From IMG/VR virus record IMGVR_UViG_3300042270_000314: 64,000 nucleotides of DNA; one strand, 5' to 3'. The notes under the pieces were generated by a model. It searched no databases. It was not told where the DNA came from and was given only the letters and a program-made list of their open reading frames with translations. Origin of the DNA: a virus (lineage: Duplodnaviria; Heunggongvirae; Uroviricota; Caudoviricetes). The translations under genes were made by a program, and so were the position numbers. Below, piece after piece: positions 10,549-57,484 of this stretch. Each line of letters starts with the position of its first letter. Position 1 is the first letter of the stretch.

Positions 10549-11058
10549 TTAATTTGTTTTTGTATATGAAATCTGATTTATAGACCCTCTATTAATATTT
10601 CTACTATATTTGTATCCTGAATCTATCATAATAAATTTAAATACTTGAGTATTATTTAATAGTCTTTCAATACAATTCATTTTATTAAAGAAAATAAACT
10701 GAATTTCTTTTACCTTTTTTTCTTTTAATAGCATTCTTAATGAAGTTAAAAATCCATAATAATACTCAAATAGCTGCTCTTTAGTAAGATTCTTTATGTT
10801 ATTGTATTCATTTTCATTATGAAAAGAAATTTTCCAAATATTCCCTTCTTCAATATATGCAATAAAATTAAACTGCTTAGAACCTATTGTAAACAAAGTA
10901 CAAAAATCATAGATAGGGGAATCCTCTTTAACTACTTCCAATGTTGGAAATGTTGTAGAAAATTCTTGATCAATATCTGAGAATGAATTAGATAACTGGA
11001 GAAAACGCTCAAACTCTGTTAATGAAAATAGTCCCATTAATACCTCTCTTAATTTCAA
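10549..11058 (-). CDS. hypothetical protein (169 aa)
   Basis: Track ORF in the nrd operon block. Confidence 0.4.
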   Translation of the reverse strand: MKLREVLMGLFSLTEFERFLQLSNSFSDIDQEFSTTFPTLEVVKEDSPIYDFCTLFTIGSKQFNFIAYIEEGNIWKISFHNENEYNNIKNLTKEQLFEYYYGFLTSLRMLLKEKKVKEIQFIFFNKMNCIERLLNNTQVFKFIMIDSGYKYSRNINRGSINQISYTKTN

Positions 11059-11061
11059 TTT

Positions 11062-11580
11062 TTAATTCAAAAATCCTCTTTCGATTTCATTACAAAGGAA
11101 ATCAATAAATGCTGTCTGCTCATCTGTAAAATTATATTTTGGATATGCCTTTTGATCTTTAAATTCGACCAAGGAATTTTTGAATTCAAAGCTCATAGCT
11201 CCCCAATCACAAACCATTTCAATAAGATCAATAAACATCATTTGTTTGATATCTTCAAAATATTCGGGATGGTGTCTATTTACGAATTTATGATGATCCC
11301 ATGCTTTAGTCATAATAGTATCATCTTCAGGTGTAAACTTATACCCAACCTTTCTATTATATTTCTCAGTCATCAAAATATAGCCCATCATTTCTTCAAT
11401 AGAAAATTTGGATTCATCATGTGCTTCGATTCGTTCTTCAAGTTCAGTTTTCGAAATAAACATATCATCTAAATATGACTTTGTTGCTTCATTAGAAAAA
11501 ATAAACTCAAAAACATCTTGAACATTCTTGATATGATTTTCTGTTCTCTCCTTGTAGTTCTTGAACATTTTACCTATCAT
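11062..11580 (-). CDS. hypothetical protein, possible HD-domain phosphohydrolase (HD...HH...HH motifs)
   Basis: EAHDESKF and WDHHKFVNRHHPEY motifs; weak. Confidence 0.3.
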   Translation of the reverse strand: MIGKMFKNYKERTENHIKNVQDVFEFIFSNEATKSYLDDMFISKTELEERIEAHDESKFSIEEMMGYILMTEKYNRKVGYKFTPEDDTIMTKAWDHHKFVNRHHPEYFEDIKQMMFIDLIEMVCDWGAMSFEFKNSLVEFKDQKAYPKYNFTDEQTAFIDFLCNEIERGFLN

Positions 11581-12178
11581 TTTTCAGCTCCCACCAATCT
11601 ACTTTATTGTCTCTAATATCTTCCCATGTGTCGGTCCATTCTTCATATATTGGTTTATTAGGAACATCATAAGGAAACTCTACCGGTAATCTGCTATAAT
11701 AATTTGTGAAATATGATTTATATGTTTCACCTGTTTTTTCATCAGTATACCATTCCCAAAACACTCTACCATCAATATTACAAGCCCTTCCGGTATCATC
11801 TTTAAATATAGTACTACATCTTTTATTCTGGCAAACACCTTCAGATACTTCATTCCACTCTTCATCTTTACCTGTAAGTGGACCTAAAGGTTTGAAATCA
11901 AATAATTTATTTAATGCGGTGATAGCATAACCAGCACTGAATCCAGAATGTCCTTCTTTAGCAAACTCAGTAACCATATGAATCAAGTGCCTTCTCATCA
12001 TACGATTCATATCATCTGGACTATTTTCTGTCATTCCGATATAATCAAGCTCGTCCATAGCATGACGTACTAATCTAGATTTTTCCGGTTTAAATGACCA
12101 ATTATCATTTGATTCCATTGTTTCATTTTCCACTAATTCGCTCGGTTCCATAAAACCTTCTACAGATGGGTCATTCAT
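11570..12178 (-). CDS. hypothetical protein (202 aa)
   Basis: Track ORF. Confidence 0.4.
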   Translation of the reverse strand: MNDPSVEGFMEPSELVENETMESNDNWSFKPEKSRLVRHAMDELDYIGMTENSPDDMNRMMRRHLIHMVTEFAKEGHSGFSAGYAITALNKLFDFKPLGPLTGKDEEWNEVSEGVCQNKRCSTIFKDDTGRACNIDGRVFWEWYTDEKTGETYKSYFTNYYSRLPVEFPYDVPNKPIYEEWTDTWEDIRDNKVDWWELKNDR

Positions 12179-12879
12179 TACTTTACTCCTTTATATATCA
12201 TATTATGTTTAGAACAATATCTTCTAATAGCTTCTATTGGAGCTTCATTAGGCGCAATTTCTTCACTTGTACCAATAATACCACCCTTCCAAGAACCTTT
12301 TTTTGGACCAGTCTCTTTGTTGAATTCTATATCTATATTTCTCCTAACAATAGGTTTAGTAAAATATTTTAACCAAGAACACCATTTCTCGCCTTTAGTC
12401 CACATTCTTTCTTCAATATAGCATGTAGCTTCAATTTCTTCACCATCATAATCTTCAAGAATAAATGTAACTTTTGGTAATCTAGAATATATTTTACAAT
12501 CTCTATCAATGTGTTTACCATATTCTACAGCAAGTTCATTATGATTTAAATCAAATATCTTATGATGTCTGAATGTATATTGGGTCCAAGGAAGAAAGAA
12601 TGATTTATAATTGTTATTCTTAATCTCTCCAAAATAATCTGGTTGATCCCCCCATTTAATCATTACATGACCATCAAAAACATAGAAACCATATTCTCTG
12701 CGTGCATAATAACTATAATTTCCGGCTGGTGAATGCATTTTATATTCTTTTGGTTTAATGATAGCAGGAATACTAAAATAATATGATCCTAACCTTATAA
12801 AGTTTCTATATTGTGATTCTTCTCCACCAGAACAAAATTCTAAACCAAAACTATCCAACTTACCTTCATATTTAATCAT
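12178..12879 (-). CDS. hypothetical protein (233 aa)
   Basis: Track ORF. Confidence 0.4.
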   Translation of the reverse strand: MIKYEGKLDSFGLEFCSGGEESQYRNFIRLGSYYFSIPAIIKPKEYKMHSPAGNYSYYARREYGFYVFDGHVMIKWGDQPDYFGEIKNNNYKSFFLPWTQYTFRHHKIFDLNHNELAVEYGKHIDRDCKIYSRLPKVTFILEDYDGEEIEATCYIEERMWTKGEKWCSWLKYFTKPIVRRNIDIEFNKETGPKKGSWKGGIIGTSEEIAPNEAPIEAIRRYCSKHNMIYKGVK

Positions 12880-12882
12880 TGA

Positions 12883-13626
12883 TTATTCCTCTAACAACTT
12901 CATCTTATTAAACTTTTTCTTTTCCTCTTCAATCTCTTCTAAAGTTTTATCACCTAAGATCAAGTTACCAGAGGGTGGGTCGGTGATCAATAAACTTTCA
13001 TTTACAATTTTTTCCATTTTCGTAAATAACTCCCATTCGTCTTTTACATAAGATCTGTATTTTGATATATTATTTAAGAAATCTGAAATTTTTTCTTTCT
13101 CATCTATAGATAATATTATATATTTTTTAAGTAGTAAATAAAGGAATGTATAAGGGTCAATATGACCCCGAATATAATCATTAACAACATTTAATGAAAA
13201 TTCATTTTTAGATTTACAATATTCTAATATTGAATTCCTTTGATCTTTCTTTAGAATTCCTTTCATGAATTTAAAACTTTTTAAAATTTGTTTTTTACAT
13301 GCTTCACAATGAAATTTTTGAATCTTATCATTTTGAATGTACTGCTTTAAAATTTTATCATTGAGGAAATTCGTATAAGTGAATTTTGGGAATAATTTGA
13401 ACCCCGTTTCAAGATACTTGATTGGATCAATATTTTGCCATTTGGTATTAAAATAATCTGAGAGTGTTTTAATCTTGTCATAGTTAGCTTGATTAGATTG
13501 TCTTAGCTTTTCTAATGAAAGATCAGGGTTCTTTGGTAGTCTATATGGTCTATTATTTATAATTCCTTTCATTTTGAGGTATTCTACATATAGAAATTCC
13601 ATTGTGATCATATGGTCTCCTAACAT
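12883..13626 (-). CDS. hypothetical protein (247 aa)
   Basis: Track ORF; first gene downstream of the 13740-13810 repeat module. Confidence 0.4.
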   Translation of the reverse strand: MLGDHMITMEFLYVEYLKMKGIINNRPYRLPKNPDLSLEKLRQSNQANYDKIKTLSDYFNTKWQNIDPIKYLETGFKLFPKFTYTNFLNDKILKQYIQNDKIQKFHCEACKKQILKSFKFMKGILKKDQRNSILEYCKSKNEFSLNVVNDYIRGHIDPYTFLYLLLKKYIILSIDEKEKISDFLNNISKYRSYVKDEWELFTKMEKIVNESLLITDPPSGNLILGDKTLEEIEEEKKKFNKMKLLEE

Positions 13627-13859
13627 ATTAAAATTATTAGTTAAAATTTAAAAATCTTGAAAACTAGGAAAAACTCTCAAAATACTAATATAATATACAC
13701 AGTTTTTTCATAATTTCTGGATTTTTCATATAAGTTATTGAAATCATTAGATATTCATAAAACTTGGTGGATTCCTAAGTTATTGAAATAGTTAGATAAT
13801 TTATTTTATCCTCTTTTTTAGAGTTTTCCAGATGTTTTTATTATAAATGAGAAATTTAA

Positions 13860-13900
13860 CTTGTAAACCTTAAAAATTCTTTGTTTACAATTGATACCGA
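13860..13900 (+). promoter_or_regulatory. sigma70/T4-early-like promoter GTTTACA-N17-ATAAAT pointing into the GC-rich non-coding island
   Basis: tttGTTTACAattgataccgaagtagaTAAATTat seen directly. Confidence 0.35.
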
Positions 13901-13959
13901 AGTAGATAAATTATTTTATAAATAAGTTTAATTGATATTTGAATAGGTGGAATTAAGAG

Positions 13960-14560
13960 TTTGGACTTGCTAGTTGGTTAAGAGCTAATTAGTGAGCGCT
14001 TGGTAAAATATTTCCGAGTGAGGACGACTTCTTCATAAAATGTTTGTCCCATTGTCAATGACAATGCAAGATCCGCCCCTGAAGCAACCAAAGGGGATGT
14101 ATGAATTTCACGCGAGTGACTTTTGTGTCAATTTGACTCATGCTAGGTCCAATCCCTTCATGAGCCACCGGCATAAATGCCCAGCAGACGTTATCCTAAA
14201 GCCATCTGCTGGAGAGGATAGAATCCGACTGTACTAGTTTCTTGTAACGATTTTGATTTTTGCTAGTGTTCTTAGTGATCAAAATTTATTAACGGGAAAG
14301 GGAAGATCGTTTTGTAGATTGGGAGCATATGAATGCCCAAGAAGTTCAGATCAAACTAGACCATACCTGAACTTGGCTTAATCAACCAAACAGAACGTAG
14401 GAAAACATAAGGAACCTCGCCGCAATGCATACTGTTTCAAAGCTCTTTTGTGGGGTAATGAGAACGGGATGTGTTTGGCAGGAAATTGAATGTTTCTTCT
14501 TAGATTAAATTAGTCTAGGTAAGTCACGTTCAATTTCCTGCCGAATGCATTGATAGAATA
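13960..14560. ncRNA. GC-rich (~45% vs ~28% background), hairpin-dense non-coding island; candidate structured RNA (group-I-intron-like, RNase P or tmRNA not resolvable by eye)
   Basis: No ORF >65 aa in any frame even with TGA as sense; multiple long perfect stems (CCCCT...AGGGG; CCAGCAGA...TCTGCTGG; CCAAGAAGTTCAG...CTGAACTTGG; 14-bp GGCAGGAAATTGAA...TTCAATTTCCTGCC). Confidence 0.4.
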
Positions 14561-14629
14561 TATATAAAAAATTTTCTATATTATTATTTTATAATTTATT
14601 ATGGGTGGATTAGAATCTAAATTTGAAAT

Positions 14630-15064
14630 CTAAAGCTCAATAGCAATATCATCTACGAATACTGAATTTGATGTTTTCATTTGAATAGAATACATTTCAA
14701 ATCCATTTGCAGCAACTATTTCTTCAATATTCTTAATCTTTTTTCTTCCAAATAATATACTTGAAATATTGAGTTTTTTTGCTTTGACTGCTGTATTGTT
14801 GACTAGGATAAGTTTGGTGTCATGGGAAACTTGAAATGCAAAACCATCTTCAAGTGTGATTTTGATTAATGATGGTACTTTTTCTTCTTCGATTAGTAAT
14901 ACAGGGGAAAACCCTTTTAATGTAGTTAATTCAAGAAATTTTTTGTTTAGTTCTTTTTTCTTATAAACAAGATTTTTGAGTAGATCAATTCTGATTTTGA
15001 AAATGTTGTTTTTTCCTGCTTTGACAGTAACCATTGATCCCCTGTGAACAAGACATGTTTTCAT
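14630..15064 (-). CDS. free-standing Hint/intein-like domain protein (MKTC-LVHRGSMVTV block-A-like, VSHDTKLIL block-B-like; lacks terminal HN)
   Basis: Track ORF; ends with a true TAG; located just downstream of terL. Confidence 0.4.
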   Translation of the reverse strand: MKTCLVHRGSMVTVKAGKNNIFKIRIDLLKNLVYKKKELNKKFLELTTLKGFSPVLLIEEEKVPSLIKITLEDGFAFQVSHDTKLILVNNTAVKAKKLNISSILFGRKKIKNIEEIVAANGFEMYSIQMKTSNSVFVDDIAIEL

Positions 15065-15098: not shown

Positions 15099-18000
15099 TT
15101 ATGTGTTCATTCAAGATCAGTCTGCATTTTCAAGATAGTGATCATCATCAATGTCTGCTAGAATCCCTCATACATCCTCATCTTCTTCTTTGTTTTTAAA
15201 TAGGTCAACATCATCTTCAAAAAGTTGAGTATCAATAAGGAAACATAACCAATAAAGAGCCGAGACAAGGTCATCCCCGGTGTCTGCGCTTGAAGAAAAT
15301 TTTCCGTTTTTTTCAATGAATGTTGAAATTTGTTTAGCTGTTTCCCTATCTTTAACTATTAGTGATCCATCTTCAATGAGTTTCTTCATTGTAATAACAG
15401 CTTTTGTCTTTGATGAAGAAGTTGCTCTAATGCCAATCTCGTTTTCTTTGTTTCCTGAATTATAAAGGTTTGGGTTTTCAAAGACCCACCAAAGATTCTG
15501 TGAAACTGTGGATCCTTCAGCATTATTCTCAATACCGATAATAGCATCATTATAGTAAATTGATAATCTATTAATGATAGAAGAAAGTTCATAGGTGTCA
15601 GTAACATTGGACTGGAATGTTGCTGCATTAACTAATTTTACTGGTTTAAATGAATCTATTCTATAAATTTGTATACAAGCATCATGAGCTCCCGATCCTT
15701 TAGACGGATCAACACCGATGAGATATTTTTCTCCATCTTTTGGTTTAAGATAAACCCTAAGTCTTTCATTAAGATCCATAGCAATGGGGTCTTCTAGAGT
15801 AGTGTTAATATATCCAATGGCTTCAGTGGAAACAACGGTATTTGATGACCCAAGAAACTCGACCTCAAATTCCTGGTTGAACTTCTGTATGTTTCCCATG
15901 TTTTTAATTTGTTTTTCTTTTCATTTTTTATTTCTACCAGGTATCATGTCCCAAGTGACTTTCATATGCTTGTATTCGTTTTTACTTGTTTCAGCTCCAG
16001 AATAAATTTCATGAAAGAGATTGAATACACCATTTGGAGTAGAAATAATAATAATTTTTGCTTCATCAGAAGATGAAATTGCTGGATAGACTGAAGTATA
16101 AAATTCTCTAGCAATGTTATCTGAGACGAAGGCTAGCTCGTCGAGGAGAAGCATTGAACAATTGTGTGATATTACACCATTTGTTCAATATGATTGTGTG
16201 TCTTGTACATTCAATGCGTCGAAAACTTCTATATCATCCCATTGATATTCTTTTTCTAATACTGTTGTTTTTGGAAAAAGAATATCACCAACAATAATAT
16301 CTTTAGCTTCTTTAAAAGTAATACCATCAGACAAAAGAAATTTGTGATTATGTGTGCAATCTATAGTTTCATTGGTTGATAAATCAAATTTTATCAATGT
16401 TGATTTTCCTTGATTTATAAACCCATCAAATGGTTTAAATCCTTTGTGTGTTAATATTTCCATTACTTTCTTCCTATTGATCATCCTTCTGGTAAGTTTT
16501 TATCTTTATCATACATTTTTATTTCTTTTGTTTTTACATTATGAATTCAAATAGTATTTTTTCTGGACTCTTTCTTTTTCCCTGTTCCTTTCAATCAACC
16601 ATCTGGGATTTCATGATTTTTACTGATTTGTATAGTTTCTAATGTTAGGGGATTATATATATGAATTTTACCCTTATTTGGGGCATCCTTTCCTATTCGC
16701 GAATTTGATATACGCTTTCGAGTTACTTCACTTCTTTTCATACCCCTATGTTTTTCTGCTGTTTTTCGAATTTTTTCAGGATTTCTATTTATTTTATCAA
16801 CTCATTCATCTGATTTTTTATGACCCTTTAAAGAGTTACTTAATTTTTTATTTCTTTCTTCTGTAAATGTTTTATTATATCATGTATTATATTCTTCTAA
16901 ATTCATGTTTGTAAATTTTAAAAGTCTACTTGTAGATATATTTTTTCTATGTTCTAAAGAAAGTCTTCTTCCTCTTAATTTATTTGATAATTTTTGTCTT
17001 GTTTCTTTACTTACTGGAGGTCTATTTTTAAGAGCTTTTATTTGTTTTTCCCTATATTCATTGTTTTTTCATCTTTCTTTCGATGATATAGAAATTAACT
17101 TTTTGGCTTTTGGAGTATGTTTATAATTTCTAGATTTTTCAGAAATGAGCTTTTTTGTTTTATCAGAATGTTTTCTGCCATAAAAGCCATTTGCTTCTCC
17201 ACATAAAATACACACATTACCACCCAATGATAAATTATAGTTTGAGTTATCTTTAACAAACTCTTCATTCACAAGTTCCCTTTCCAATAATTCTGCATCT
17301 TCTTTATTATCAAACACCATTATAATTTCTCTTTTAAAATTTTCTGGTCCATATTTTTCAATAGCTCTTCTTATATATTTTCCAGACCCCAAATACCCAT
17401 CATCCAAATCATTTGTAGAATGGAACCCTATATAGTATTTCCCATTAATTAAATTTGTCGTTTTATACACCATATAATATTTTTTAGTATTTTTGAAATT
17501 CATTTCATCTCCCATAAATCTATTTATATTAGATGAAATTGCTTTTGTTTTTTCTATGGTTGTATAAAAAATATCTCCATTATCATCACACACACAAACT
17601 TTTGTATATTTGGGAACACAGGATCTCCCACGGAATGTGTCTTCAGTTGTTCCAGCAGTTTCAATTTTAGATCCATTTTCAAATTCAATGGAATTTTTGT
17701 TATATTCTATAACCCCAGGTTTTAATCAAAAAGGCAGCTCCTCATACATAATCTTAATACGTCTAAGAAGATCTTTTGCTGAACTTGCTTTATTAGATGC
17801 AATTCCGATGAATTTATCAGAATTAAAAATTGCATATCAAAGAGCAAAAGCCCCTACTGTAGTTGAATTGTGACTCTTTATACCATTAGTATAATAACAT
17901 TCCCCATCAACATCTAAACAATCATACATATTAGAAAATGTGTTTAGTTTTTCAATACTAGAAATTTCTATATCACCATTTTCTGTTTCTATAAAATTGC

Positions 18001-18568
18001 CTGCACTTAAATCTTTGACATAAATTTCTTTATTATTTGAAAATAAAATATGATTATCTGCACATATTAATTCTATACCATTTGATAATGATACTTTATA
18101 TTCATCATATTCAATAGTTTTGCCAACCCCAGAAAAATCTTTTCACCCTTCTGGGGTTCATATTTCATAATCTTCACAGAAACGCTTTTCAACAAATTTA
18201 TCATCTATATTAAAAGAAGATATTGTTAATTTATCAAAAAATTCTCCAATAGTTAGTTCTTCCTCTATTCCAGTTTTTTTGTTTCTAATTTTTATTTTTG
18301 TGTCCCAAGAAACGCACTTTCCCGATTGTCTGCAGAACAAGAAAACCAAATAACGATTGTCTTTACACATTTTAATCATTTTTTTCTGAAATGGGTAAAG
18401 AAGATCCCCTAATTTTTTCCTGCCACCATCGATAGTAACAATAGTAACAAAATTAAGAAAATACAAAACATCTTCTGAACACCTAACAAGATCTGATATC
18501 ATCTCAGGTGTATATTCATTTTCCATTCCTGGGGTCTTTACAAATTTATCATCGTATCTAATTGACAT
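15099..18568 (-). CDS. terL: large terminase subunit (T4 gp17-like) interrupted by two inteins; several in-frame TGA; frame break inside intein 2
   Basis: N-terminus LYPFQKKMIKMCKDNRYLVFLFCRQSGK then intein 1; extein STTVGAFALWYAIFNSDKFIGIASNK...LPFW*LKPGVIEYNKNSIEFENGSKIE matches the T4 gp17 region TVVAIFLAHF...[23 protein letters not shown]; after intein 2 the extein CSMLLLDELAFV (Walker B)...IIIISTPNG...nuclease domain IGVDPSKGSGAHDACIQIY...DDLVSALYWLCF. Confidence 0.8.
16161..17620 (-). mobile_element. intein 2 of terL (begins CVPKYTKVCV, ends VISHN|C): N-terminal part fused in frame to a complete GIY-YIG endonuclease with NUMOD3 repeats ending at TAA 16464-16466; blocks B and F/G follow in the -1 frame from ~16484
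   Basis: GIY-YIG YYMVYKTTNLINGKYYIGFHSTN...YLGSGKYIRRAIEKYG; NUMOD3-like GRKHSDKTKKLISEKS, GMKRSEVTRKRISNSRIG; I-TevI-like tail IPDGW*LKGTG; block B IDCTHNHKFLLSDGITFKEAKDIIVGDILF; block F/G VFDALNVQDTQSYW*TNGVISHN. Confidence 0.6.
17867..18316 (-). mobile_element. intein 1 of terL: ~150-aa mini-intein inserted in the Walker A P-loop (GK|C...SHN|S)
   Basis: CVSWDTKIKIRN (block A), GIELICADNHILF (block B), MYDCLDVDGECYYTNGIKSHN (blocks F/G) then +1 Ser; contains 2 TGA codons. Confidence 0.7.
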
Positions 18569-18653
18569 ATTAAAAGCCTTTTCATAGTTTGATTTATTTA
18601 TATAAATATTATAAACATCAAGTGAATCATAAAATTCTGGAGGAATTTAACTC

Positions 18654-20355: not shown

Positions 20356-21910
20356 ATGGGGTTTTTTACAGGGTTAAAGGATTTTTTCTTTTCCAATGAT
20401 GTTAATGAAGAGCTAAAACAATTCAAAAACATTGGAACGGAAAAAGACAAAAAGGAATCTGAATTTGGTGAAGGTTTTGAGAACCCAATATTTGCTGCAG
20501 CTGGTCTAATAACTAATCAGTTTTACGACAAATATCTATATCAGAAGCTTGATACCAAACTTAAGAAAATTGAAGAATATAGAAGAATAGCTGCTAATGC
20601 TGAAATTTCTGATGTCATTGAGGATGCTGTTATTGAATCAACAATGCCTAATGATAGTGATGAAATTTTTAAATTAGTATTTAGAGATGAGAAACTTGAG
20701 AAGAATAAAAATGCTAATAAGAATATTATGAATGAGTTTAATGAGCTCATCTATAATAGACTAAGACTTAATACTAAAATTCAAAACTATATGGAAGATT
20801 ATTTTATTGATGGAGAATTATATTTAGAAAATGTAATTGATGTCAATAATTCTAAACGTGGTATTCTATATTGGAAAAAACTTCCCACTGAGACTATGGA
20901 CTTCATTTACAACTATGAAAAAAGCATGGTTGAAGGATATATTCAACATCTTAAAATGGGAACTTCTAATTCATTAATTAGATCTATTGAAGATGCTAGA
21001 AATAACAAAGATATTATAGTTTTCAATAAATCCCAGATTTCTTATATGAACTATGGAAAATTTTCCCCAGTAGATAGAACAAAAGTATTTGGCTATCTTG
21101 AAAAAGCTAGAAAGCCATTTAACCAATTGAATATGCTTGAAACATCTGTAATCATTTATAGATTGGTTAGAGCACCAGAAAGATTTGTATTCAATATCGA
21201 TGTAGGTAATATGCCGCGAGATAAGGCAATGCAGTTTGTTGAAAAAATGAAACAAAAGCTTTCAACAAAAGAATCATTTGATCCTGAAACTGGGCTATTG
21301 AAAAAAGCAACAAATGTAATGTCAATTAGTGAGAATTTTTTCTTACCTACATCTAGCTCAGGTAGAGCAAGTTCGGTTTCTACAGTAGGGGGTAACCCTT
21401 CAGGATTTGCTGAATTGGGTGATATTTATTACTTTCAAAAGAAACTATACAAAGCACTAAAATATCCTATCACCCGAGTTCAGAATACTCAGGACAATAG
21501 AAGTGGCGATAATCTATTTGGTGGTGGATCAAATTTTGGGGAAATCCCTAGAGATGAAATCAAATGATCTGTGTTTTTGGAAAATCAACAGGACAAATTT
21601 TGTAGGATGCTTCTAAAAACATTTTTAATTCATCTTGAATTCAAAGGATTATTAAAACAATATGGATTAGATGAATACTCATTTGCTATTACTATGAATT
21701 GCCCAAATTCATATAAAGATCAAATTGAGCAGAAAGGAAGAGAAACAAGATTTAACAACTATAATTCTCTTGTTTCAAATGCAGAATTTTCAAAATCATA
21801 TCTTATGAAAAAATATCTTGATATGGATGATGATGATCTAAAGGCGAATGCCGAAGGATTTAAACTTGATAAAGAATTATTTGGCATTGGAGAAGAGGAG
21901 GATATGTAAT
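20356..21910 (+). CDS. gp20: portal protein (T4 gp20-like), ~517 aa, 1 in-frame TGA at 21565
   Basis: Track ORFs 20356..21567 and 21571..21909 are in one frame joined by TGA; size and position (between gp24-like and protease) match T4 gp20. Confidence 0.65.
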
Positions 21911-25030: not shown

Positions 25031-26272
25031 ATGTCTAAAATTAACGTTAATCAGCTAGTAGAAAAGTGGAATCCACTTATCAACGAGGAAAAAGTCGTTG
25101 CCAAGGTAGGCAAGATTAAAGATAATAAAATTGAAACCATGACAGCTATTATGCTTGAGAATGAGTTCAATTATCTAAAAGAACAGAATATGGTTAATGA
25201 AGCATCTTATACAGATGGTTCTTTTGGCTCTAACTATGCAACTTCTGGTGAATTCCACAAGATTGCTATTCCCATGGTTCGTAGAACTTTCCCTAATCTA
25301 ATTGCTCACGAAACCGTTGGTGTTCAGCCTATGACCTCCCCTGTTGGTCTAGCTTTCGCTCTTCGTTTCCGCGCTGGTCAGACTTACAACTCTGGTTCTA
25401 ACACTGAACTTGGTTACAACACTGTAGATAAGTCATACACTGGCTCTATGGTTACTTCTGCTGGTGAAATTCTAGGTTCTAGTACTTCTCCTGCTGTTGG
25501 TCTAGGTATTGGTACTGGCGATCAGATCAAGGAAGTTAACCTAACCATCGAAAAAGCTCAGATTGAAGCTAAGACCCGTAAGCTACGCAGCCGCTGGTCC
25601 TTAGAAGTTGCTCAGGATCTTAATGCTATGCATGGTCTTGACATCGAATCTGAAATGCTTGATATCCTTGGTTATGAAATTCAGGCTGAAATTGACCGTG
25701 AAATCATTGATGCTGTAAAAACTGCTGCTAATACCAATGCTTACTCTTATGTAGATGGTCAGCTCGGCACTCTATCTTGGGCTTCTTCTGCTCATTTTGA
25801 TGGCCGCTGGGAACATGAAAAATATCGTAACCTTTACAATCGTACCGTTCGTATGGCTAACCGCATTGCTATCACAACCCGTCGTGGTGCTGGTAACTTC
25901 GTAGTTGCTAATCCTACTGTATGCGCAGCTCTTGAAGGAACTTCCAGTTTCACAATTGCTCCTGTATCTGGTAATGTAAACACTGCTAATACCTCTGTTG
26001 AAATCATTGGTACACTAGACGGTCGTATGAAAGTTATCCGTGATACTTTCGCTACTGTAGACGAACTAACTGTTGGTTACAAGGGTGCTGGCGGCTCAGG
26101 TATGGATGCCGGAATAATTTATTGCCCATTTATTCAACTTCTATTAAGCAGAGCAACTTTTGAGAACTCATTCAACCCCACAATAGGTCTAATGAGCCGA
26201 TATGCCCTTCATAGCAATATCTTTGGCGCCGAAAATTACTATATCCGTAGCGTTATTACGGAAATGCCGTAA
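25031..26272 (+). CDS. gp23: major capsid protein (gp23-like)
   Basis: 413 aa; paralogous to the 18654..19817 protein; follows protease and scaffold; strong terminator downstream. Confidence 0.8.
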   Translation: MSKINVNQLVEKWNPLINEEKVVAKVGKIKDNKIETMTAIMLENEFNYLKEQNMVNEASYTDGSFGSNYATSGEFHKIAIPMVRRTFPNLIAHETVGVQPMTSPVGLAFALRFRAGQTYNSGSNTELGYNTVDKSYTGSMVTSAGEILGSSTSPAVGLGIGTGDQIKEVNLTIEKAQIEAKTRKLRSRWSLEVAQDLNAMHGLDIESEMLDILGYEIQAEIDREIIDAVKTAANTNAYSYVDGQLGTLSWASSAHFDGRWEHEKYRNLYNRTVRMANRIAITTRRGAGNFVVANPTVCAALEGTSSFTIAPVSGNVNTANTSVEIIGTLDGRMKVIRDTFATVDELTVGYKGAGGSGMDAGIIYCPFIQLLLSRATFENSFNPTIGLMSRYALHSNIFGAENYYIRSVITEMP

Positions 26273-27178: not shown

Positions 27179-29130
27179 CTACCTTGCATACCTATAAACT
27201 AAACACCCACAATCCCAAATTCTATCAAATCCATTCATTTGCATATTTTCCCATTCAGTAAGATTAGGATCAAAATCCTTTAATAAACTTGGTAATTTAT
27301 GTTTCATATAAACGGATCTATGTACCAACTTCCCATTAATAATGTACCAATAGGACGGAGCACTCTTATGACTAAATTCAAACCCAAGTTGTTCATATAA
27401 ATTACCATTAGACCATCTACGATCTGCATAGGAAATTATTTCTTCAAATTCATTGTTTCTAACAAAGTGTTTAAATAATTTACTTGCTCCCCCAATGACT
27501 TGTGTATTAAGTTTATTACAAAATCTTAAAAGCTCAAGTTTAGTTTTTCCTGTTATTTTTCTCTTACCAAAAGTCATACATGAAACAAGTTCATCATTAT
27601 AAAAAAGCCCATATCTAATAGACGAATTACAATATCCTTGGAGGTGATTTTGAAGAAGAAAGATATTAGATTCTTCAAAAGTAAGAGATCTTATTTCGCA
27701 TTTTCTAGCATATATTCTATTTTCAAAAATACCCAACTTAGAAAGAAGTGCAGATTTAACTATAGATTGTTTATCTTTCCATTCCGTTTCAAATATATGA
27801 ATAAGTTGAATATTATTTTCATCACAAATATCTGTCTTATTTATATGATATTTTTTATTTTTATTTCCTGAAATTTCAGAATGATAATATATACCATCAT
27901 ATTCAATCCCCAAATTGGAATTTGGAATAAAGATATCTATCTCAAGACCATCTAAAATTTCTTTATTTCCCCTGCGATGATTAATATTCAAAAATTTTGC
28001 TATTTCGTTTTCTGCCTTACTAGTTCCTCCCTTAACTCTACAGGAACAAGAAACTCCTTTATTTATTAATTCTATAGATAATGGTCTGATATTTTTACAT
28101 CTTAAACATTTAACATCGGTCGTTTTTAGAGGACTAAGAGCAAATTCATATCTAGATGCTATCATTTCATAATCATTATCTTTACAATAATTATATATTA
28201 ATGGATATTTTTTAAATCTCGCAATAATATTACTATGTTTATTTCCACAATTAGTACAATAGCTTCTATAACCATTTCTTAATAATGGTGTTTTCTCTTT
28301 TTTACAAATATAACATATTCTTTCTTTTGGATTATTATTTAGAATAAGGTAATATATTTCTCTATGAGTAAAATCCGCATAATAGATGTTTATACTTTTA
28401 TATAATTTTGGGGACTTGTTAAGAATTTTTATGGCAACATTTTGAAAATCATAATTGAATTTAGCTAAAAATAAAAGAAAAATTTTATTGGTTCTTTCTA
28501 ATGAATAAACTTTAATATCTGAAGATTTTAAAATTTTAATTCCTCTATTATTTCTTTCCTTTTTAACATCTTGGTTAGGATCACGTTTTCTTATTAAATC
28601 TGGATTATTTATAGCACATATTCTTGAACAAAATTTTCTATATCCCCATGACTCTAATAATGTGTTAAATGGTAATATATTTCCACAAAGAGGGCATACA
28701 GGAATATTTTTTAAATTAAAAACATAATGGAATATTTTTTGAGATAATATACTGTTAGTAATATTGGATTTAATGTCATTAAAAAACAATTCTATTTGTT
28801 GTATTGTTTTTGGATATTTGTTTTTTAATATTTTAATATATCTTTTGGGGTATTTAACTCTTAATTCTAAAATTTCCTCTTTTGTTAATATAATATCAGT
28901 AGATTCATTAAGAAGTGCTTTTTCATTTCCAATTTTTTCTCTATATATTTGAGACTTAGTCATACATTCATATGAACAATATTGTATATTATGTTTTCCT
29001 TTACTTAAAAAAGGCTCACCACATTCTAGACATAAATCATGATAATAATATGTACCATCATTACCTCTAAAATTTCCTCTATTGCTTAATTTAATATTAT
29101 GTTTTTCTAGATTGTCTCAACAAATAATCA
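27179..29130 (-). CDS. large homing-endonuclease-like protein: multiple Cys zinc fingers plus a Vsr/DUF559-like nuclease motif (LGIEYDGIYYHSE); ~650 aa, 1 in-frame TGA
   Basis: Track ORF 27179..28963 extends upstream through TGA to ATG ~29128-29130 (MIICW*DNLEKHNIKLSNRGNF...CLECGEPF...). Confidence 0.5.
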
Positions 29131-29176
29131 TGATAGTCTACTCCCATAGAATTTGAAATTTAAAGAGAAGTTAGAG

Positions 29177-29267: not shown

Positions 29268-31208
29268 TTAAGAAACCGCACCTGCTCCAATTAGTTCATC
29301 GAAGTTAGCCCCAGTTTTTGTTGCGATAAAGTTAAGCCGGATAAACTCGACTGCTCTGGCGGGCTGGATCCATATATTCCCAACTAGCTCGTTACGATCA
29401 ATTCTTTCTGGGGTATTAGTTGTTTCATCAATCTGGACCTTGAAGGCATAAATGCCACGGCGGCCCTGAATATCACGAAGGAAAGGCTCAATCATATTGG
29501 TCATTAACATCCAAGTAATTTCATCGTTCATCTCGAATAAAAAGTATTTGGCACTTTTTGCGATGGCTTTTTCCAATATGAGGAACAACCTGCGAACATT
29601 AATTCTATTAAATGCACTCTGTTTATCTAATAGGGTCTTCTGTCCTCAAACTACTTTGCCCTGACCACTAAAAGAAACAACAGGGTTAATTCCTGCAACA
29701 TACATTGCATCTCGATTTCCTTCAGTAGGATTAAAAGCAAGTCTACGAACACCAGTTAGAATAGCTCTATTCAATCCAGCAGGTGCTCACCATGCATCAG
29801 CTACATCATCTGTATGAGCATATAGACCAGCCATATGACCGGAGAGAGGAAGCCAACGATATTTTTTGTTCCAAGTATCAAATACTTCGATCCAGTTACC
29901 ATATAGAGCAGCATATGAAGTATTAGGATTAAATGTAGAACCAGCTTGTCCTTTTCTCCATTTTACCATATCTAATGTTTCAGAACCTTTGTTGTTTAGA
30001 ACATGGGATCTTAGAACATCAAGTACAACAAAACAATCTCTACGAATTGATTCACAAAGCTCTACAAGGTAGGTTTTTACAGTTACACCCTTATCTGATT
30101 CGATAAAGAGATTGACATCAATTTCTTCAGGATTAGCATAAAGATTATATGCTTCAATACAAGCAGCATCTTCACCAGCCTGAACAGTTACATCTTCATG
30201 TCTTCCAAATACACCATTCTTTCCACCAGAAAGGGTGGCCATACGAGTCATAATGGCCCCAATCGCGGGCGAATCAATTTCTGTAGTTGTTTTAAAGACA
30301 GGATTCAAAGCTACATTAATATACTTTGACTGTTCATTTACAACAGTCTCAACAAAATTAGAAACGCCGGAATCATCAATTGAATTTTCATCAGAAGAAA
30401 CAATGAAGACCTCTTTGTCTTCCCATATTGTTGAACCCTGATCTTTAGCTTGGACTACGATTGTGAATTGTTTTTCATCAGTCATAGGAGTATCGAGATC
30501 ACGAATTACAACAAATGGAAGATCATCCTGGTAACCAGGAGTTCCAAAATCGGGATTAGCTTCATAATCTACCCACATTCCAGATACTGCTGCCGTAGCT
30601 GAAGCAGTTAAAGATACGCCAGAAGGAATATCAAATGTTTCAGTCTGTGTATCAAAATACTTAACAGCATCATATGTGGCCTTGTCATAAACAAGTAAAC
30701 GAGTATTGTTTCCAAATTCACCACGATATTTAGCAAGTACCCAAAGTGGGTCATCTTCACCCATTAAAGTGTCTACCATTTCAGGGAACATCTTCATATC
30801 AGTTGTTCCTAATGAGGTATAGGTATAAGGACCATCATCTTCAGTTCCTTCAACAGTTCCAGTAGCTTCAAAAGTGAAGTTAGCAGTGGCTTCCTGGGTA
30901 GAATTTGTTCCAGTTAAAATTTTTGTACCAGCAAAAGTAGCATCAGTAGGCATAACCCTTGTACAATAGAGCATGCTTCCATATTTAAGATATCCTGCAG
31001 AAGACAGAATATCAATAAAAGAACTATCAGCAGGTTTACCAAATGCATCAATAAGTTCATCTGTATTTGTTACTAAATACTGTTCGTATTCAGGGCCTTT
31101 GTATGTTTTTCTTAGGACGTTTACAGCAATAGAAGTTGCTACTGCAGGAATTGTGGTGCTTAGATCCACTTCCCTCGTCGCCACGCCCGGCGAAATTCCG
31201 AAACTCAT
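29268..31208 (-). CDS. gp18: tail sheath protein (T4 gp18-like), ~646 aa, 2 in-frame TGA
   Basis: Track ORFs 29787..31208 and 29268..29588 are joined through two TGA codons; C-terminus VVW*GQKTLLDKQSAFNRINVRRLFLILEKAIAKSAKY...IDETTNTPERIDRNELVGNIWIQPARAVEFIRLNFIATKT matches the conserved gp18 C-terminal domain. Confidence 0.85.
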
Positions 31209-48653: not shown

Positions 48654-49100
48654 TTAACATTTATACATATCTTCAATATTAAGATCTTCTAAATAATCTT
48701 TCATATTTTTATTTTCTAATAAATTTTTAAAAACATTAAAACATTTATCTTGTAAAAATTTCATTCTTGCTTCATGGCCATATAACATTTCTGGCATATC
48801 ATTTTCATCAAATGAAATGTAATATTCATCAACAATTTTTAAATCTTTAATATGTATAAGACCACTTAGATAAGTATATATAGCAATAATTCTTTTAGCA
48901 GAATCTAATTCACAAGAGAATCCAATAATAATATCATTTTCAAAGACAGTTAAAGTTAAATTTCCATCTAAAAGGGATATTACTTCATTTTCCTCATTAT
49001 AATAAGCAAGCTCTTTACCTAGATACTTATCATCTTTAACGATATCCCAAATTCTTTTTGTAATTTCTACATCTGATAACCCCCGCTTCCATTCATCCAT
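48654..49100 (-). CDS. hypothetical protein (148 aa)
   Basis: Track ORF. Confidence 0.4.
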   Translation of the reverse strand: MDEWKRGLSDVEITKRIWDIVKDDKYLGKELAYYNEENEVISLLDGNLTLTVFENDIIIGFSCELDSAKRIIAIYTYLSGLIHIKDLKIVDEYYISFDENDMPEMLYGHEARMKFLQDKCFNVFKNLLENKNMKDYLEDLNIEDMYKC

Positions 49101-51127
49101 TATACTTCCTCCTTAATAGAGCTATATCCATTAGATTTAATAATATTAAACCTACGATCAAATGTAAACGAACTAATTTCTTTTCTATGAGAAACAATGA
49201 ATGTAGCAAGATTGTCTTCACGTTGTTTGATAGTTACAATATTCATAAGATTTTCAATACCTTTAACATCTACAGAAGAATCCAAAATTTCATCAAGAAT
49301 AAGAATGTTTGGGAGATTTTTGCATTTTAATTTTGAAATGTCATAAAGAGCAAATTGAAGAGCCAATTCTAAAGATTTCTTTTCTCCCCCGGAAAGACTA
49401 CTGGCTGTTGCATTAGAAATTCCAGCTCCCTTGATTTCACAATCCAGCCATCCATCAAGCTTGATATAAAACCCTACGGCTGCCTCTGAGAGGTAATGGT
49501 TAGCTCTCTGGTTAATGATAGGTACTAGACTACTAATGGCATATTGCTTAATCTGGTCATCACCACAGAGCTTCTTCAGGAAGGAATAATAATCCTTCAA
49601 AAGACTAAGATTAGTATTCTTCTTTTTGAGTTCAACATTTTCACTCTTCAGAAGACTCAGTTCAGAAATAGCATTTGCTTTGTATTCTTCAAGCTTCTCA
49701 ATCTGAGCTTTTCTTTCTTCAATTCTATTTTTTTCATTTTCAATCTGAGAAAGAAGAAGATCTCTATTGTACAATGAGGCCCTTTCCTTCATTTCTTTCA
49801 ATTTTGAATTGCAATTAAATACAGTATTAGAGAATTTTTCTTTTGTTTCCTTTAGAGTCTTAATAGATTCCATAATCTCTAAATACTTACTATTTTCTTC
49901 AATTACTTTTGTTAATCTTTCAATTTCAGATTCATAATACTTATAATCCATATTAGATTTTTTAATATCATTATGCTTAGAAATAAGGAGGTTTTCCTTT
50001 TCTTCTACTTCAGTAAGCTCCTTGTTTAATCTATCTTTTTCTTTTGCTTTGTGTTCTCTAATAGATTCATTATTCATTTTAGATCCACAAATAGGACAAT
50101 TATCAAGATCTTCATATTGCCCTTTTTGTGAGACCTTTTTCAGATCTGAAAGGATGGATTCTTTCTTTACCTTATAATCGAAACACTCATCATAAAGAAG
50201 CTTTTCAAGTTCCTCATCGTAGTTTACACTAGTAAAATTCTTCTTACATTCTTCTAACTTGTCAGCAGCATTAGGGTCATAACTAATTCCCTTTAGAAGA
50301 GCATTCTTTTCTGAAAAAGCTATTTCAGCTTTATTTTTAACTACTTCAATATCTTTAATCTTTTGTTCATATTTCTCAATATCTTCTTTTGAAGGAAGAT
50401 CATCCGGGATATCGTTGAGTTGTTCCTGAAGTAACTGTAAGTGAGTATCTGAAATGTCAATACTTCGAATATCAGAAGTGTATTTTGAAACATTTATTTC
50501 TAATGAAGAAATTCTCTCTTCATTTTTCGAAACAGAAGTTTTGTTCTCTAATATTGCACTATCAATATTAGAAACTTTTTTATTAATCTTATTCTTTATA
50601 TCTGAGTATGCTTCAAGATTGAAAATGTTCTCTAGAAATTTTCTTTTCTGAGCTTTAGGAATATCAAAGATTGAAACGAAGTTATTTGGATTATAATAGA
50701 ACAAGGAAATAAAGGTTTTGTAATCAATTTTCAAAATTTCTTCTTCGAGATATTTTTGAAAATCTGTGACAGAAGCTAAAGAATCAAGTTCTTTATCGCC
50801 CTTGTAAATTTTTAGAACATTAGGTTTGATTCCTCGTTCAATCCTATATTTAATCCCATCAATAGAGAATGAAATTTCTACCAAGCATTTTTTCTTATTC
50901 TTCCAATTTACTATTTGATCTTTAGTAATATCTTTAATTGTTTTGCCAAACAATGCCCAAACAATACTTTCATTTAAACCAGATTTCCCTGCTCCATTTG
51001 ATCGTGAAGTATCCTTGTTTTGCCCTGAGATCAAAGTCAGCCCGTGGTCAATTTTAAATGTTGAAACATTAGATCCATATGATAGAAAATTCTTTATCTT
51101 GACTTCTTCTAAATGAATTATAGACAT
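49100..51127 (-). CDS. gp46: recombination endonuclease subunit gp46 (Rad50/SbcC-like ATPase)
   Basis: N-terminus KIKNFLSYGSNVSTFKIDHGLTLISGQNKDTSRSNGAGKSGL...YRIERGIKPNVLKI matches T4 gp46 (…TGRNGGGKST…YYIKRGQKPNVFEI); long coiled-coil; C-terminal LSGGEKK signature and LILDEILDS D-loop. Confidence 0.8.
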   Translation of the reverse strand: MSIIHLEEVKIKNFLSYGSNVSTFKIDHGLTLISGQNKDTSRSNGAGKSGLNESIVWALFGKTIKDITKDQIVNWKNKKKCLVEISFSIDGIKYRIERGIKPNVLKIYKGDKELDSLASVTDFQKYLEEEILKIDYKTFISLFYYNPNNFVSIFDIPKAQKRKFLENIFNLEAYSDIKNKINKKVSNIDSAILENKTSVSKNEERISSLEINVSKYTSDIRSIDISDTHLQLLQEQLNDIPDDLPSKEDIEKYEQKIKDIEVVKNKAEIAFSEKNALLKGISYDPNAADKLEECKKNFTSVNYDEELEKLLYDECFDYKVKKESILSDLKKVSQKGQYEDLDNCPICGSKMNNESIREHKAKEKDRLNKELTEVEEKENLLISKHNDIKKSNMDYKYYESEIERLTKVIEENSKYLEIMESIKTLKETKEKFSNTVFNCNSKLKEMKERASLYNRDLLLSQIENEKNRIEERKAQIEKLEEYKANAISELSLLKSENVELKKKNTNLSLLKDYYSFLKKLCGDDQIKQYAISSLVPIINQRANHYLSEAAVGFYIKLDGWLDCEIKGAGISNATASSLSGGEKKSLELALQFALYDISKLKCKNLPNILILDEILDSSVDVKGIENLMNIVTIKQREDNLATFIVSHRKEISSFTFDRRFNIIKSNGYSSIKEEV

Positions 51128-51130
51128 TTA

Positions 51131-51625
51131 TTATTCCTTAAAAAACAAATTTTCATTTACATAACGGTTTCTTAATTCCATTAAAATAAAGCCTAGATGA
51201 TTATGTTTTACTTTTACTTTTTTACATTTTTCACATTTACATACACCCCAAAAATTATCATGCCATAAGTTTCCTTCGATTAATATATAGGGGTGTGTTG
51301 CTATAAGTTTTTCTTTAATACTCTTATTATATTCAAATTTTTCATATATAATGTCTCTCATTATTTGAACTTTTACATTATTCCAATCTTCTCTTAATGT
51401 CAATTTCTTCCCTATTTCTTTGACAAGATGGGGAGTAGGGCAATCTATAATCCATTTTTTCTCTTTTGGATCAAGGGTTTTGGATGCTTGATAAGCATGT
51501 TCAGCAGTTTTCCATACAATATCATTATATAGAACAAAGGAAAAATAAAAATTACTTAGAAAGACATGTTCTCCCCTAAAAGTTTCAATACTGTTTTCAT
51601 CAAATATATTATAGATAGTAGACAT
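51131..51625 (-). CDS. NADAR (YbiA-like) domain protein
   Basis: FRGEHVFLSNFYFSF...AEHAYQASK...GNLWHDNFWG...HLGFILMELR match the NADAR/YbiA family signature. Confidence 0.65.
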   Translation of the reverse strand: MSTIYNIFDENSIETFRGEHVFLSNFYFSFVLYNDIVWKTAEHAYQASKTLDPKEKKWIIDCPTPHLVKEIGKKLTLREDWNNVKVQIMRDIIYEKFEYNKSIKEKLIATHPYILIEGNLWHDNFWGVCKCEKCKKVKVKHNHLGFILMELRNRYVNENLFFKE

Positions 51626-52025
51626 TAAAAGTTACCTCACTGTCTCCAAATACATATTTAAGTTGTTCCTTAACTGCGGGCCAAGATAACCTATCAAGCC
51701 CACAACCAATTTTAGGCATATAGACTTCTGTAATGATGTTATTTCTCATTACCTCTGCCATATTTTGGAGTGCAAAGCACATAGACTCATAAGAGGGTTT
51801 ACCGGAACTTCGTCTTTTTGTTACAATATTTAATACTGGGGAAACATAATAAGTTTTCCCTACTTCAAGAACTTCATTTCGAAGTCTTTTAATTTGTGGA
51901 TAATTTTTCACAAAATCAACCGCAATACCAGCACCCATTTCAGCATCTGCTGCAATACAATGAGCAACCACAGTATCTTTTTTAACAAAATTGAACAGGT
52001 TTCCCTGAGTTTCATTGATTATCAT
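51609..52025 (-). CDS. Macro-domain protein (ADP-ribose binding or hydrolase)
   Basis: VVAHCIAADAEMGAGIAVDF...YMPKIGCGLDRLSW match the macrodomain glycine-rich and GCG(L/I)DxL motifs. Confidence 0.6.
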   Translation of the reverse strand: MIINETQGNLFNFVKKDTVVAHCIAADAEMGAGIAVDFVKNYPQIKRLRNEVLEVGKTYYVSPVLNIVTKRRSSGKPSYESMCFALQNMAEVMRNNIITEVYMPKIGCGLDRLSWPAVKEQLKYVFGDSEVTFNVYYL

Positions 52026-52318
52026 TATTTGAATTCCTCATAGTTATACTTATATCCATTTGGAATATAATATTCTTCATGCTCATAAATGTTAACCATA
52101 CCATTATAATATGCGTTTAAGGATTTTGATGCTGAAATACAAAAAGGCGTGTCACCAAAATCCCATACAGCCTTTACAAATTTAACTTTAAAAGAATATT
52201 CATCATCCGTGGAATTGTCTTCTAATATTTCAATTTCACCAATAAGACCGGATTCTTTATATTGGTATCTTTTTCCAACCTCAACAAAATCCCAGCCACC
52301 ATTATGCCATGTTGCCAT
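52025..52318 (-). CDS. hypothetical protein (97 aa)
   Basis: Track ORF. Confidence 0.4.
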   Translation of the reverse strand: MATWHNGGWDFVEVGKRYQYKESGLIGEIEILEDNSTDDEYSFKVKFVKAVWDFGDTPFCISASKSLNAYYNGMVNIYEHEEYYIPNGYKYNYEEFK

Positions 52319-52331
52319 AATTTACACCCCC

Positions 52332-52769: not shown

Positions 52770-52797
52770 GCCACTTATCTATTGTAAATAAAATTCT

Positions 52798-53655: not shown

Positions 53656-53658
53656 AAA

Positions 53659-54281: not shown

Positions 54282-54440
54282 TTTCTAAAAAGTTATCATC
54301 ATATTCATACTGGAAAGACCATTCAGGGCCATACATTTCAAACATTCTTTTTCGGGATTCATCAAAAGACCCTTCAATCACAACATAACAATTTGCGTGT
54401 TTTTGACCACAACCAAAAGTAAATGCATACTTACTCATTT

Positions 54441-55920: not shown

Positions 55921-55922
55921 CT

Positions 55923-56330: not shown

Positions 56331-56346
56331 AATAATCCCCCTGTTT

Positions 56347-56568: not shown

Positions 56569-56589
56569 AATGTTTTCCTTTGAAGATTG

Positions 56590-56663: not shown

Positions 56664-56666
56664 AAA

Positions 56667-56744: not shown

Positions 56745-56750
56745 ATGTTG

Positions 56751-57483: not shown

Positions 57484-57484
57484 T

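Follow-up and report, generated by a model that had tools for sequence, protein, structure and literature searches.

Three kinds of described system come close to the locus reported here. AceL and GOS (IntN/IntC, the N- and C-terminal intein fragments, 25/104 and 37/115, respectively) are atypically split phage terminase inteins that trans-splice in vitro (PMC11766414), and the consensus derived from their C-fragments is known as CatC. The 'fractured genes', including gp41-1, NrdJ-1, the AceL NrdHF locus and the gp17 terminase locus, carry a stop codon after IntN, a non-coding spacer of 27–51 nt and a free-standing endonuclease open reading frame (ORF); endonuclease and IntC overlap by 6–69 bp, and GIY-YIG genes are included (Dassa et al. 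2009, PMC2677866). Canonical LAGLIDADG and HNH inteins carry the nuclease inside the host-intein precursor. The entry of homing endonucleases into inteins has so far been mostly a matter of models: step IIIa of the Dassa scheme is in-frame capture via loss of the flanks of the endonuclease gene (PMC2677866), and in a 2025 proposal from the Gogarten lab indels shift free-standing nucleases into frame. A 2025 survey of non-canonical intein-endonuclease architectures contains in-frame LAGLIDADG and HNH, antisense LAGLIDADG and Vsr-like and out-of-frame EndoVII-like endonucleases as well as Vsr-like endonucleases associated with split inteins; GIY-YIG is mentioned there, with reference to Dassa 2009, solely as a family associated with inteins, and no in-frame example is given. 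Here we describe the large terminase gene (terL) of a tailed phage (Caudoviricetes, IMG/VR record IMGVR_UViG_3300042270_000314), analyzed in a stretch of 64,000 nt referred to as the window. We consider it probable (about 0.8) that this terL is a fractured gene reassembled by trans-splicing, with a GIY-YIG endonuclease read in frame behind IntN. New here is the in-frame fusion to IntN; the family of split inteins, the fractured-gene layout and the control of the endonuclease have been described before. The literature searched yielded no nuclease, GIY-YIG or other, fused in frame to a split-intein N-fragment, no contiguous intein with an in-frame GIY-YIG domain and no phrasing of the 'GIY-YIG intein' type, which agrees with the first-pass annotation of the window, whose author was not aware of GIY-YIG modules inside inteins.

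The terL gene lies on the minus strand (18568–15099, stop codon at 15101–15099) and contains two inteins, one in the Walker A motif and one directly before Walker B. With translation table 11 the region splits into about ten short minus-strand ORFs. We translated it with code 4 (TGA = Trp), which gives two long ORFs with 15 in-frame TGA codons over both. ORF A (16463–18568, minus strand; 701 codons plus TAA, 10 in-frame TGA, one TGG) encodes in a single frame TerL extein 1, intein 1, extein 2, IntN with a linker and the GIY-YIG endonuclease. ORF B runs from 16463 (the better start) or 16484 to 15099 on the same strand and encodes IntC and TerL extein 3. The exteins, all on the minus strand, comprise 84 aa with the C-terminal Walker A residues ..CRQSGK (18317–18568), 82 aa from STTVGAF to TFRGRS (17621–17866) and 353 aa from Cys+1 (15099–16160), the last beginning CSMLLLDELAFV.. 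with Walker B and continuing into the nuclease domain. The reading of TGA as Trp, which the first-pass annotation had adopted, is supported because L004 (46% identical) and L005, relatives that use the standard code, have TGG-Trp codons opposite the TGA codons of the window at the conserved positions FALW, LPxW, SYW, xxW and GW. The joined exteins (519 aa) match Pfam Terminase_6N (1.5e-18) plus Terminase_6C, and align in one piece with an uninterrupted T4-type TerL over 98% of the length (36% identity, E = 2e-90).

Both inteins are precise insertions with the sporadic distribution typical of mobile DNA, since close relatives carry the empty sites. L001, which is also TGA-recoded and has a TerL 84% identical to that of the window, lacks intein 1 with an exact junction (..CRQSGKSTTVGAF..) and is empty at site 2 as well (..TFRGRAAAMLLLDE.., in another quotation ..RGRAAAMLLLDE..). 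The 165-kb contig L091 holds intein 1 and an empty site 2 (..RGRSVALLLLDE..). The endonuclease is absent from both.

Intein 2 was found just before Walker B (TFRGRS | CSMLLLDELAFV..), as first annotated. Its Cys1 lies at 17620, and IntN with its linker (17504–17620, minus strand; 39 aa, CVPKYTKVCVCDDNGDIFYTTIEK..) has no stop before the endonuclease. IntC (16161–16463, minus strand; 101 aa, MEILTHKGFKPFDGF..) carries block B (DCTHNH) and blocks F/G (..VFDALNV..NGVISHN). That these blocks continue in another frame had been seen correctly in the first pass; the start proposed for them at 16484 is not required, as an ATG is available at 16463, and the TAA occupies 16465–16463 instead of 16464–16466. 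At the coupling junction (16461–16475, minus strand) a Shine-Dalgarno-like AGGAAG (16475–16470) precedes this TAA and the ATG at 16463–16461, so that the stop codon of ORF A and the start codon in frame with ORF B overlap by 1 nt as TAATG (22 nt with the start at 16484). Folding gave no RNA structure in the junction region, and the gene caller chose the ATG at 16463 for the protein P0001 on 12 public contigs.

IntC matches Pfam Intein_splicing above the gathering score (6.7e-9), and the best PDB match of IntN plus IntC is the 'Consensus engineered intein CatC' (6DSL_B, E = 1.9e-9), which covers all of IntC; the Hint-block similarity claimed in the first pass is thus recovered by profile searches. 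The CatC alignment begins with MEILTHKGF, the residues right after TAATG, and the second PDB match, VidaL (6VGV, E = 0.011), aligns with the same IntC start. The residues on which splicing depends are all present, namely Cys1, the T-x-x-H of block B (CTHNH), the terminal His-Asn and Cys+1 (SHN|C), and they are likewise conserved across divergent loci. Judged from these alignments, intein 2 is an atypically split intein related to AceL-, GOS- and Cat-TerL, and the frame break is its natural split site. The first-pass annotation had explained it by a homopolymer indel in the assembly, a degenerate intein with an inactive terL or an unusual expression mechanism. These are needless because the break falls on the natural split site at the N-terminus of CatC, and they are contradicted because the split is conserved across loci: the stop and restart recur in more than 20 divergent loci, the residues required for splicing are retained, and, with a TAATG behind a Shine-Dalgarno-like motif, no special expression mechanism is called for.

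With AceL-, GOS- and Cat-TerL the window intein shares the TerL host of tailed phages, a short IntN with block A only, a long IntC with blocks B, F and G that starts at the same residue, and the location of the fragments on separate ORFs, the break falling within 39 aa and leaving block B on the C-fragment; AceL also has the Cys1/Cys+1 pair. However, the window IntN has no stop codon and runs on into a 346-aa endonuclease. Identity to the Cat consensus is only ∼35–40%, and the insertion site probably differs from that of AceL-TerL, an AceL-like IntN being found at a third site downstream in L004 and L005 (see below).

The endonuclease (16466–17503, minus strand; 346 aa from an internal ATG at 17503, 6 in-frame TGA) shares the frame of IntN, and no TAA, TAG or TGA lies between Cys1 of intein 2 and the endonuclease; the first-pass annotation was right to report a complete GIY-YIG/NUMOD3 enzyme in frame behind the intein start. 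It matches PHROG 314 'homing endonuclease' (9.5e-48) and Pfam NUMOD3 in two stretches (9.2e-13), together with GIY-YIG (0.016) and SegE (6e-4), both below the cut-offs. The sequence VY-KTTNLINGKY-YIG has the correct VY-N10-YIG spacing, and by eye the Arg in YIRRAIEKYG, the Glu in ERELV and the Asn in NYNLSLGG are candidates for the conserved residues of the family. Hundreds of homologues were found, mostly free-standing and 120–330 aa long, and close homologues have precomputed PF01541 and PF19835 matches. Of the 'I-TevI-like C-terminal tail' noted in the first pass, the NUMOD3 part holds; when the endonuclease sequence was searched against PDB, no match to I-TevI reached significance (best 0.06, linker region only). 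An exact look-up of the 174-aa code-11 ORF that spans the IntN-endonuclease junction returned no match with either a V or an M start.

The order of parts on one strand (host-N plus IntN, endonuclease, IntC plus host-C), the phage origin, the overlap of the endonuclease 3′ end with the IntC start and the hairpin and T4 late-promoter element upstream are all features of the fractured genes, whose endonucleases are GIY-YIG or Vsr-like. In contrast to these, the window has neither a stop nor a spacer between IntN and endonuclease, the endonuclease is in the IntN frame, and the split lies at the atypical position between blocks A and B instead of the canonical endonuclease-insertion position. As in canonical LAGLIDADG/HNH inteins, the nuclease would be made within the host-intein precursor and leave with the excised intein. 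However, it is a GIY-YIG enzyme located between blocks A and B (canonical: B and F), and it is fused on the N-side only; because the C-side consists of a stop and a restart, splicing of intein 2 must be in trans.

Related loci with an IntC-TerL alignment (80 from IMG/VR and 59 from metagenomes) were classified by tblastn with code 4. All 25 IMG/VR loci with a GIY-YIG homologue at site 2 hold it in the IntN frame without any TAA, TAG or TGA, and a few more loci from metagenomes do likewise. In 22 distinct linkers (1,068 nt) stops number 0, 30 and 73 in frames 0, +1 and +2, respectively. The distance from Cys1 to the GIY strand takes at least nine values (36–54 aa); since this length varies while the frame is held, every indel has been a multiple of three. 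Together with the stop asymmetry, this shows coding constraint on the linker. This in-frame rule covers this GIY-YIG lineage only. Other loci (L046, L047, L055, L065 and others) have an early stop and 1.0–1.3 kb between extein 2 and IntC and probably carry other endonuclease families in the classical arrangement. L048 has a fused GIY-YIG at a neighbouring site, after the DE of Walker B.

The split junction is conserved in kind and variable in geometry. L004 has a TAATG after GGAGG, L005 a 5-nt gap, and in about 20 further loci IntC overlaps the preceding ORF by 4–82 nt or follows after small gaps; the full range extends from an 82-nt overlap to +5, +105 and +263 nt. The overlaps are in line with the 6–69 bp of the fractured genes. 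The IntC ORF is Met-initiated in every split locus compared, with the ATG behind purine-rich stretches.

The endonuclease has its own expression signals. An RNA hairpin (17502–17539, minus strand; by folding −14.2 kcal/mol, z = −3.5, with none of 200 shuffles folding as well) contains the T4-type late-promoter motif TATAAATA (17528–17521) 25 nt upstream of the endonuclease ATG, and its 3′ arm pairs with the Shine-Dalgarno sequence GGGAG (17513–17509) and the first bases of that ATG. For I-TevI, segB and Aeh1 mobE a control has been described in which the ribosome-binding site is masked in long transcripts and accessible in late ones that begin within the hairpin (PMC2988022). The window matches this control in the hairpin-sequestered Shine-Dalgarno sequence and start and in the position of TATAAATA, from which late transcripts would lack the 5′ arm; it differs in that the cassette sits within a translated ORF, and in several fused loci the promoter is read in frame as ..I-I-N-N-S... 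The retained promoter, hairpin and ATG mark the endonuclease as a once free-standing cassette with a 5′ flank that turned coding. Another copy of TATAAATA (18595–18602, minus strand) lies 34 nt upstream of the terL ATG, and the motif stands 28–58 nt upstream of at least nine ORF starts of the window, terL included. The window uses T4-type late promoters. As the motif occurs 31 times in this AT-rich sequence against ∼29 expected (our own base-composition estimate), there is no overall enrichment, and the one informative feature is its placement with respect to ORF starts. A scan for sigma-70 promoters and terminators between 14.5 and 18.8 kb remained at background level.

These signals could be taken to mean that only a free-standing form of the endonuclease is active, translated from the late transcript with the ATG at 17503, and that read-through from IntN is a tolerated by-product or persists for a purpose other than the nuclease, e.g. 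to couple the translation of the TerL halves, TerL still being trans-spliced. A significant hairpin is kept in 9 of 17 fused loci and a perfect TATAAATA in 6 of 17, most fused loci have a Met 2–11 residues before the GIY strand, the retained motif, sequestering hairpin and ATG are those of T4 I-TevI, segB and Aeh1 mobE, and the human-gut lineage of L094 works with a free-standing state. However, four fused lineages (L011, L022, L029 and L033) have no internal Met, so that the nuclease can only be made as a fusion there, and the coding constraint on the linker described above also speaks against this reading. Ribosomes on the N-terminal half of terL meet no stop, so the fusion is made whenever terL is translated. 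We regard exclusive free-standing action as unlikely, though it deserves serious weight.

A second alternative is that intein 2 does not splice and that TerL consists of two non-covalently associated chains held together by the intein halves, as in Aeh1, where mobE splits the NrdA gene. There is precedent, since T4-like phages do contain split genes whose products work unspliced (cited in PMC2677866). Against it, Cys1, TxxH, HN and Cys+1 are conserved in the window and in divergent loci, the closest characterized relatives trans-splice, and the break falls within the ATPase core, beside Walker B, a place where a bulky unspliced HINT domain plus nuclease should get in the way. We therefore consider this improbable.

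If an assembly or sequencing indel were responsible, intein and endonuclease would in the true genome form a single contiguous ORF, or IntN would be followed by a stop. Homopolymers do lie near both junctions (A6 at 17553–17548, T6 at 17571–17566), and a 1-nt error would be critical at the A6 run of the IntN-endonuclease junction rather than at 16440–16520, where the first-pass annotation had suggested checking the reads. However, the two junctions are found in the same states in dozens of contigs, assembled independently and 35–55% identical, P0001, starting at the Met of TAATG, is found on its 12 contigs, and P0007, a 94% identical variant, reads through the IntN-endonuclease junction in the same frame. 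The finished isolate genome of phage kaaroe (see below) shows the same design with another nuclease. Since the in-frame state is conserved in related loci, an error at the A6 run is unlikely, and an indel as the explanation of the whole arrangement is very improbable. A contiguous precursor for cis-splicing, produced by programmed −1 frameshifting or by bypassing where the endonuclease ORF ends, can hardly be right: relative to ORF A, ORF B is indeed shifted to −1 in the window as well as in L004 and L005 (ORF coordinates, by hand), but the junction contains no slippery heptamer, as already remarked in the first pass, its geometry varies over the range given above, the IntC ORFs begin with an ATG behind purine-rich stretches, and the start Met aligns with the N-terminus of the crystallized CatC fragment.

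In the fractured-gene reading, ORF A would be translated as a single chain consisting of TerL(1–84), intein 1, TerL(85–166), IntN and the GIY-YIG endonuclease, from which intein 1 would be removed by ordinary cis-splicing. ORF B (IntC plus TerL 167–519) would be translated separately from the TAATG behind the Shine-Dalgarno-like motif. The ∼30-aa IntN would then pair with the 101-aa IntC to give a HINT domain as in AceL-, GOS- and Cat-TerL, and trans-splicing would join ..FRGRS to CSMLLLDE.. to yield the 519-aa terminase, releasing IntN-endonuclease and IntC. The endonuclease would be made in two ways, as a fusion by the ribosomes that translate the N-terminal half of terL and probably alone from the late transcript, and would presumably cut intein-free terL alleles of co-infecting phages, leading to homing of the whole element. 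For the frame constraint we propose that read-through takes every ribosome of the TerL N-half to the TAATG and could so couple the synthesis of both TerL halves.

The ORF structure, the homologies, the insertion boundaries, the conserved fused frame and the sporadic distribution are shown by the sequences. Several points weigh against this reading. Trans-splicing, the activity and target of the endonuclease and the reason for the frame constraint are what we infer, splicing and nuclease activity from homology only. During assembly of atypically split TerL inteins the N-extein (ExtN) reportedly threads through IntC, and a 346-aa domain at the other end of IntN could hinder this; natural contiguous inteins (L033, L039, L040 and L093) suggest that the fold tolerates an insert at this point in cis. 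Since the cassette of promoter, hairpin and ATG has been kept, nuclease function may reside in the free form, with the fusion as a by-product that is tolerated. In L094, L095 and L103, which belong to the human-gut lineage, a closely related endonuclease is out of frame behind a stop; the fusion of IntN and endonuclease is not obligatory. Locus counts overstate independence, as the loci share ancestry, and L003, another assembly of the same phage that is 100% identical over 8.3 kb, is no independent check of the A6 run in the window genome.

The related loci display a series of states at site 2. It is empty in L001 and L091 and occupied by a contiguous mini-intein in L012, L013, L017, L025 and L049. 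A free-standing split state is found in L094, and Campylobacter phage IBB_35 has a T5orf172 gene there. The N-fused split state is found in the window and ∼20 lineages. In L023 and L029 the endonuclease is decaying. L033, L039 and L093 have a contiguous intein with a truncated GIY-YIG that is in frame on both sides, as in canonical endonuclease inteins, but comprises the nuclease domain only, without a NUMOD tail; L040 also belongs to the contiguous inteins with an insert at this point. In the contiguous inteins L012, L013, L025 and L039 the Met at the IntC start is kept, fossil contexts being ..KEKIMEILTQNGF.., ..YGMKVKTKEGF.. and ..PSMQVLTQKGF... The frequent retention of this Met suggests that the contiguous inteins descend from split ancestors by deletion of the endonuclease.

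The window locus is half of Dassa step IIIa. Going further, we tentatively propose, at somewhat below even odds, that it represents a distinct and selectively maintained 'hemi-integrated' architecture, fused at the 5′ side and with a stop and restart at the 3′ side. The endonuclease would then be the first of the GIY-YIG family to be produced within an intein, and the locus a living intermediate of the step postulated in 2009, the frame being kept perhaps to equalize the two TerL halves. Taken together, the locus and its relatives show, as a natural series, each stage proposed for endonuclease entry at a single site of one essential gene, a strongly conserved half-integrated state among them. 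They also supply many new split inteins with a short IntN, a type valued for protein semisynthesis.

A cultured isolate with a split terL is Escherichia phage kaaroe (Krischvirus, MN850574, 1245–4356; L087). Its kaaroe_25 comprises Terminase_6N, IntN and a TnsA-like/Endo I PD-(D/E)xK nuclease in a single coding sequence, and the overlapping coding sequence kaaroe_24 begins with IntC, followed by the C-terminal part of TerL. The arrangement of TerL-N, IntN and nuclease in frame before an overlapping IntC-TerL-C is that of the window; the nuclease differs in being TnsA-like, not GIY-YIG, and the site lies after, not before, the DE of Walker B. The nuclease families found in frame with inteins are extended by GIY-YIG and, in kaaroe, PD-(D/E)xK, and this analogue in a cultured E. 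coli phage opens the model to genetic testing. GenBank labels kaaroe_25 'hypothetical protein' and kaaroe_24 'terminase large subunit', the intein having been missed. Gene callers and annotators mislabel such terL genes in this way, as 'hypothetical protein' plus 'terminase', and in TGA-recoded phages the genes are fragmented further.

Intein 1 (17867–18316, minus strand) is a contiguous mini-intein of 150 aa between the GK and S of Walker A, exactly within the boundaries given in the first-pass annotation. It begins with Cys1 (CVSWD..) and ends with the terminal His-Asn before the +1 nucleophile (..KSHN|S). Blocks A, B, F and G are recognizable as claimed, but block B is not of the TxxH form (..ICADNH..), the His being kept and Ala standing in place of Thr. 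The best PDB match is again CatC (6DSL_B, 1.4e-8), followed by gp41-1 (3e-3); Pfam Intein_splicing scores 1.3e-3, below the gathering cut-off. The likeness of block A in inteins 1 and 2, noted in the first pass, is real and is explained by common family membership, since both match CatC best. Intein 1 has ∼20 extra residues (..ISSFNIDDKFVEKRFCEDY..) where intein 2 holds the endonuclease, possibly a scar left by an insert since lost. At this Walker A site L004 carries a far larger intein, of which ∼290 aa are visible.

A further split intein occupies a third TerL site in L004 (2043–3834; ..AEVE|CVSGDTMVTV..ATNK*) and in L005 (2176–4011; ..NQEY|CVSGDSLITI..ENS*). There IntN, which we take to resemble AceL-TerL, ends at a normal stop. 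L004 has no endonuclease gene at this site, and L005 a free-standing 240-aa GIY-YIG gene.

Recoding is patchy in the window. With 94 in-frame TGA codons in the ORF set, Trp is encoded by TGA in late and structural genes (terL, gp23, portal, sheath and others), and two blocks (10549–15064 and 48654–58877) are free of TGA and use TGG only. This is consistent with recoding of the late genes by a phage whose host uses the standard code; an anticodon UCA is absent from all 10 tRNA genes of the window. One of the TGA-free blocks contains two adjacent anti-defence genes, Tad3 (Thoeris inhibitor, 11570–12178, minus strand; Pfam 1.7e-37) and Acb3 (CBASS inhibitor, 12178–12879, minus strand; Pfam 3.6e-51).

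A free-standing 144-aa ORF that resembles a degenerate intein (Hint-like; 14630–15064, minus strand) lies 34 nt downstream of the terL stop and is conserved in this position in L001 and L091. It is collinear with IntN plus IntC of intein 2 (BLASTP, E = 6e-6) from MKTC|LVHRGSMVTV through LTTLKGFSPV (cf. ILTHKGFKPF) and QVSHDTKLIL (cf. DCTHNHKFLL) and lacks the terminal His-Asn; searches of Pfam, PHROG and PDB gave no match. A 650-aa Cys-rich ORF between capsid and tail-sheath genes (27179–29131, minus strand) has no Pfam match and contains a motif (..LEIDIFIP..GIEYDG..YH..) reminiscent of Vsr/DUF559-type nucleases; going by this motif, it may be another free-standing homing endonuclease. Two capsid-type genes on the plus strand resemble each other and are probably gp24-like and gp23-like: 18654–19817 matches Pfam Gp23 (2.9e-69), and 25031–26272 is similar to it by eye. 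Given these capsid-type genes together with a T4-type portal gene (20356–21909) and a tail sheath gene (29268–31208), the window derives from a T4-like myovirus.

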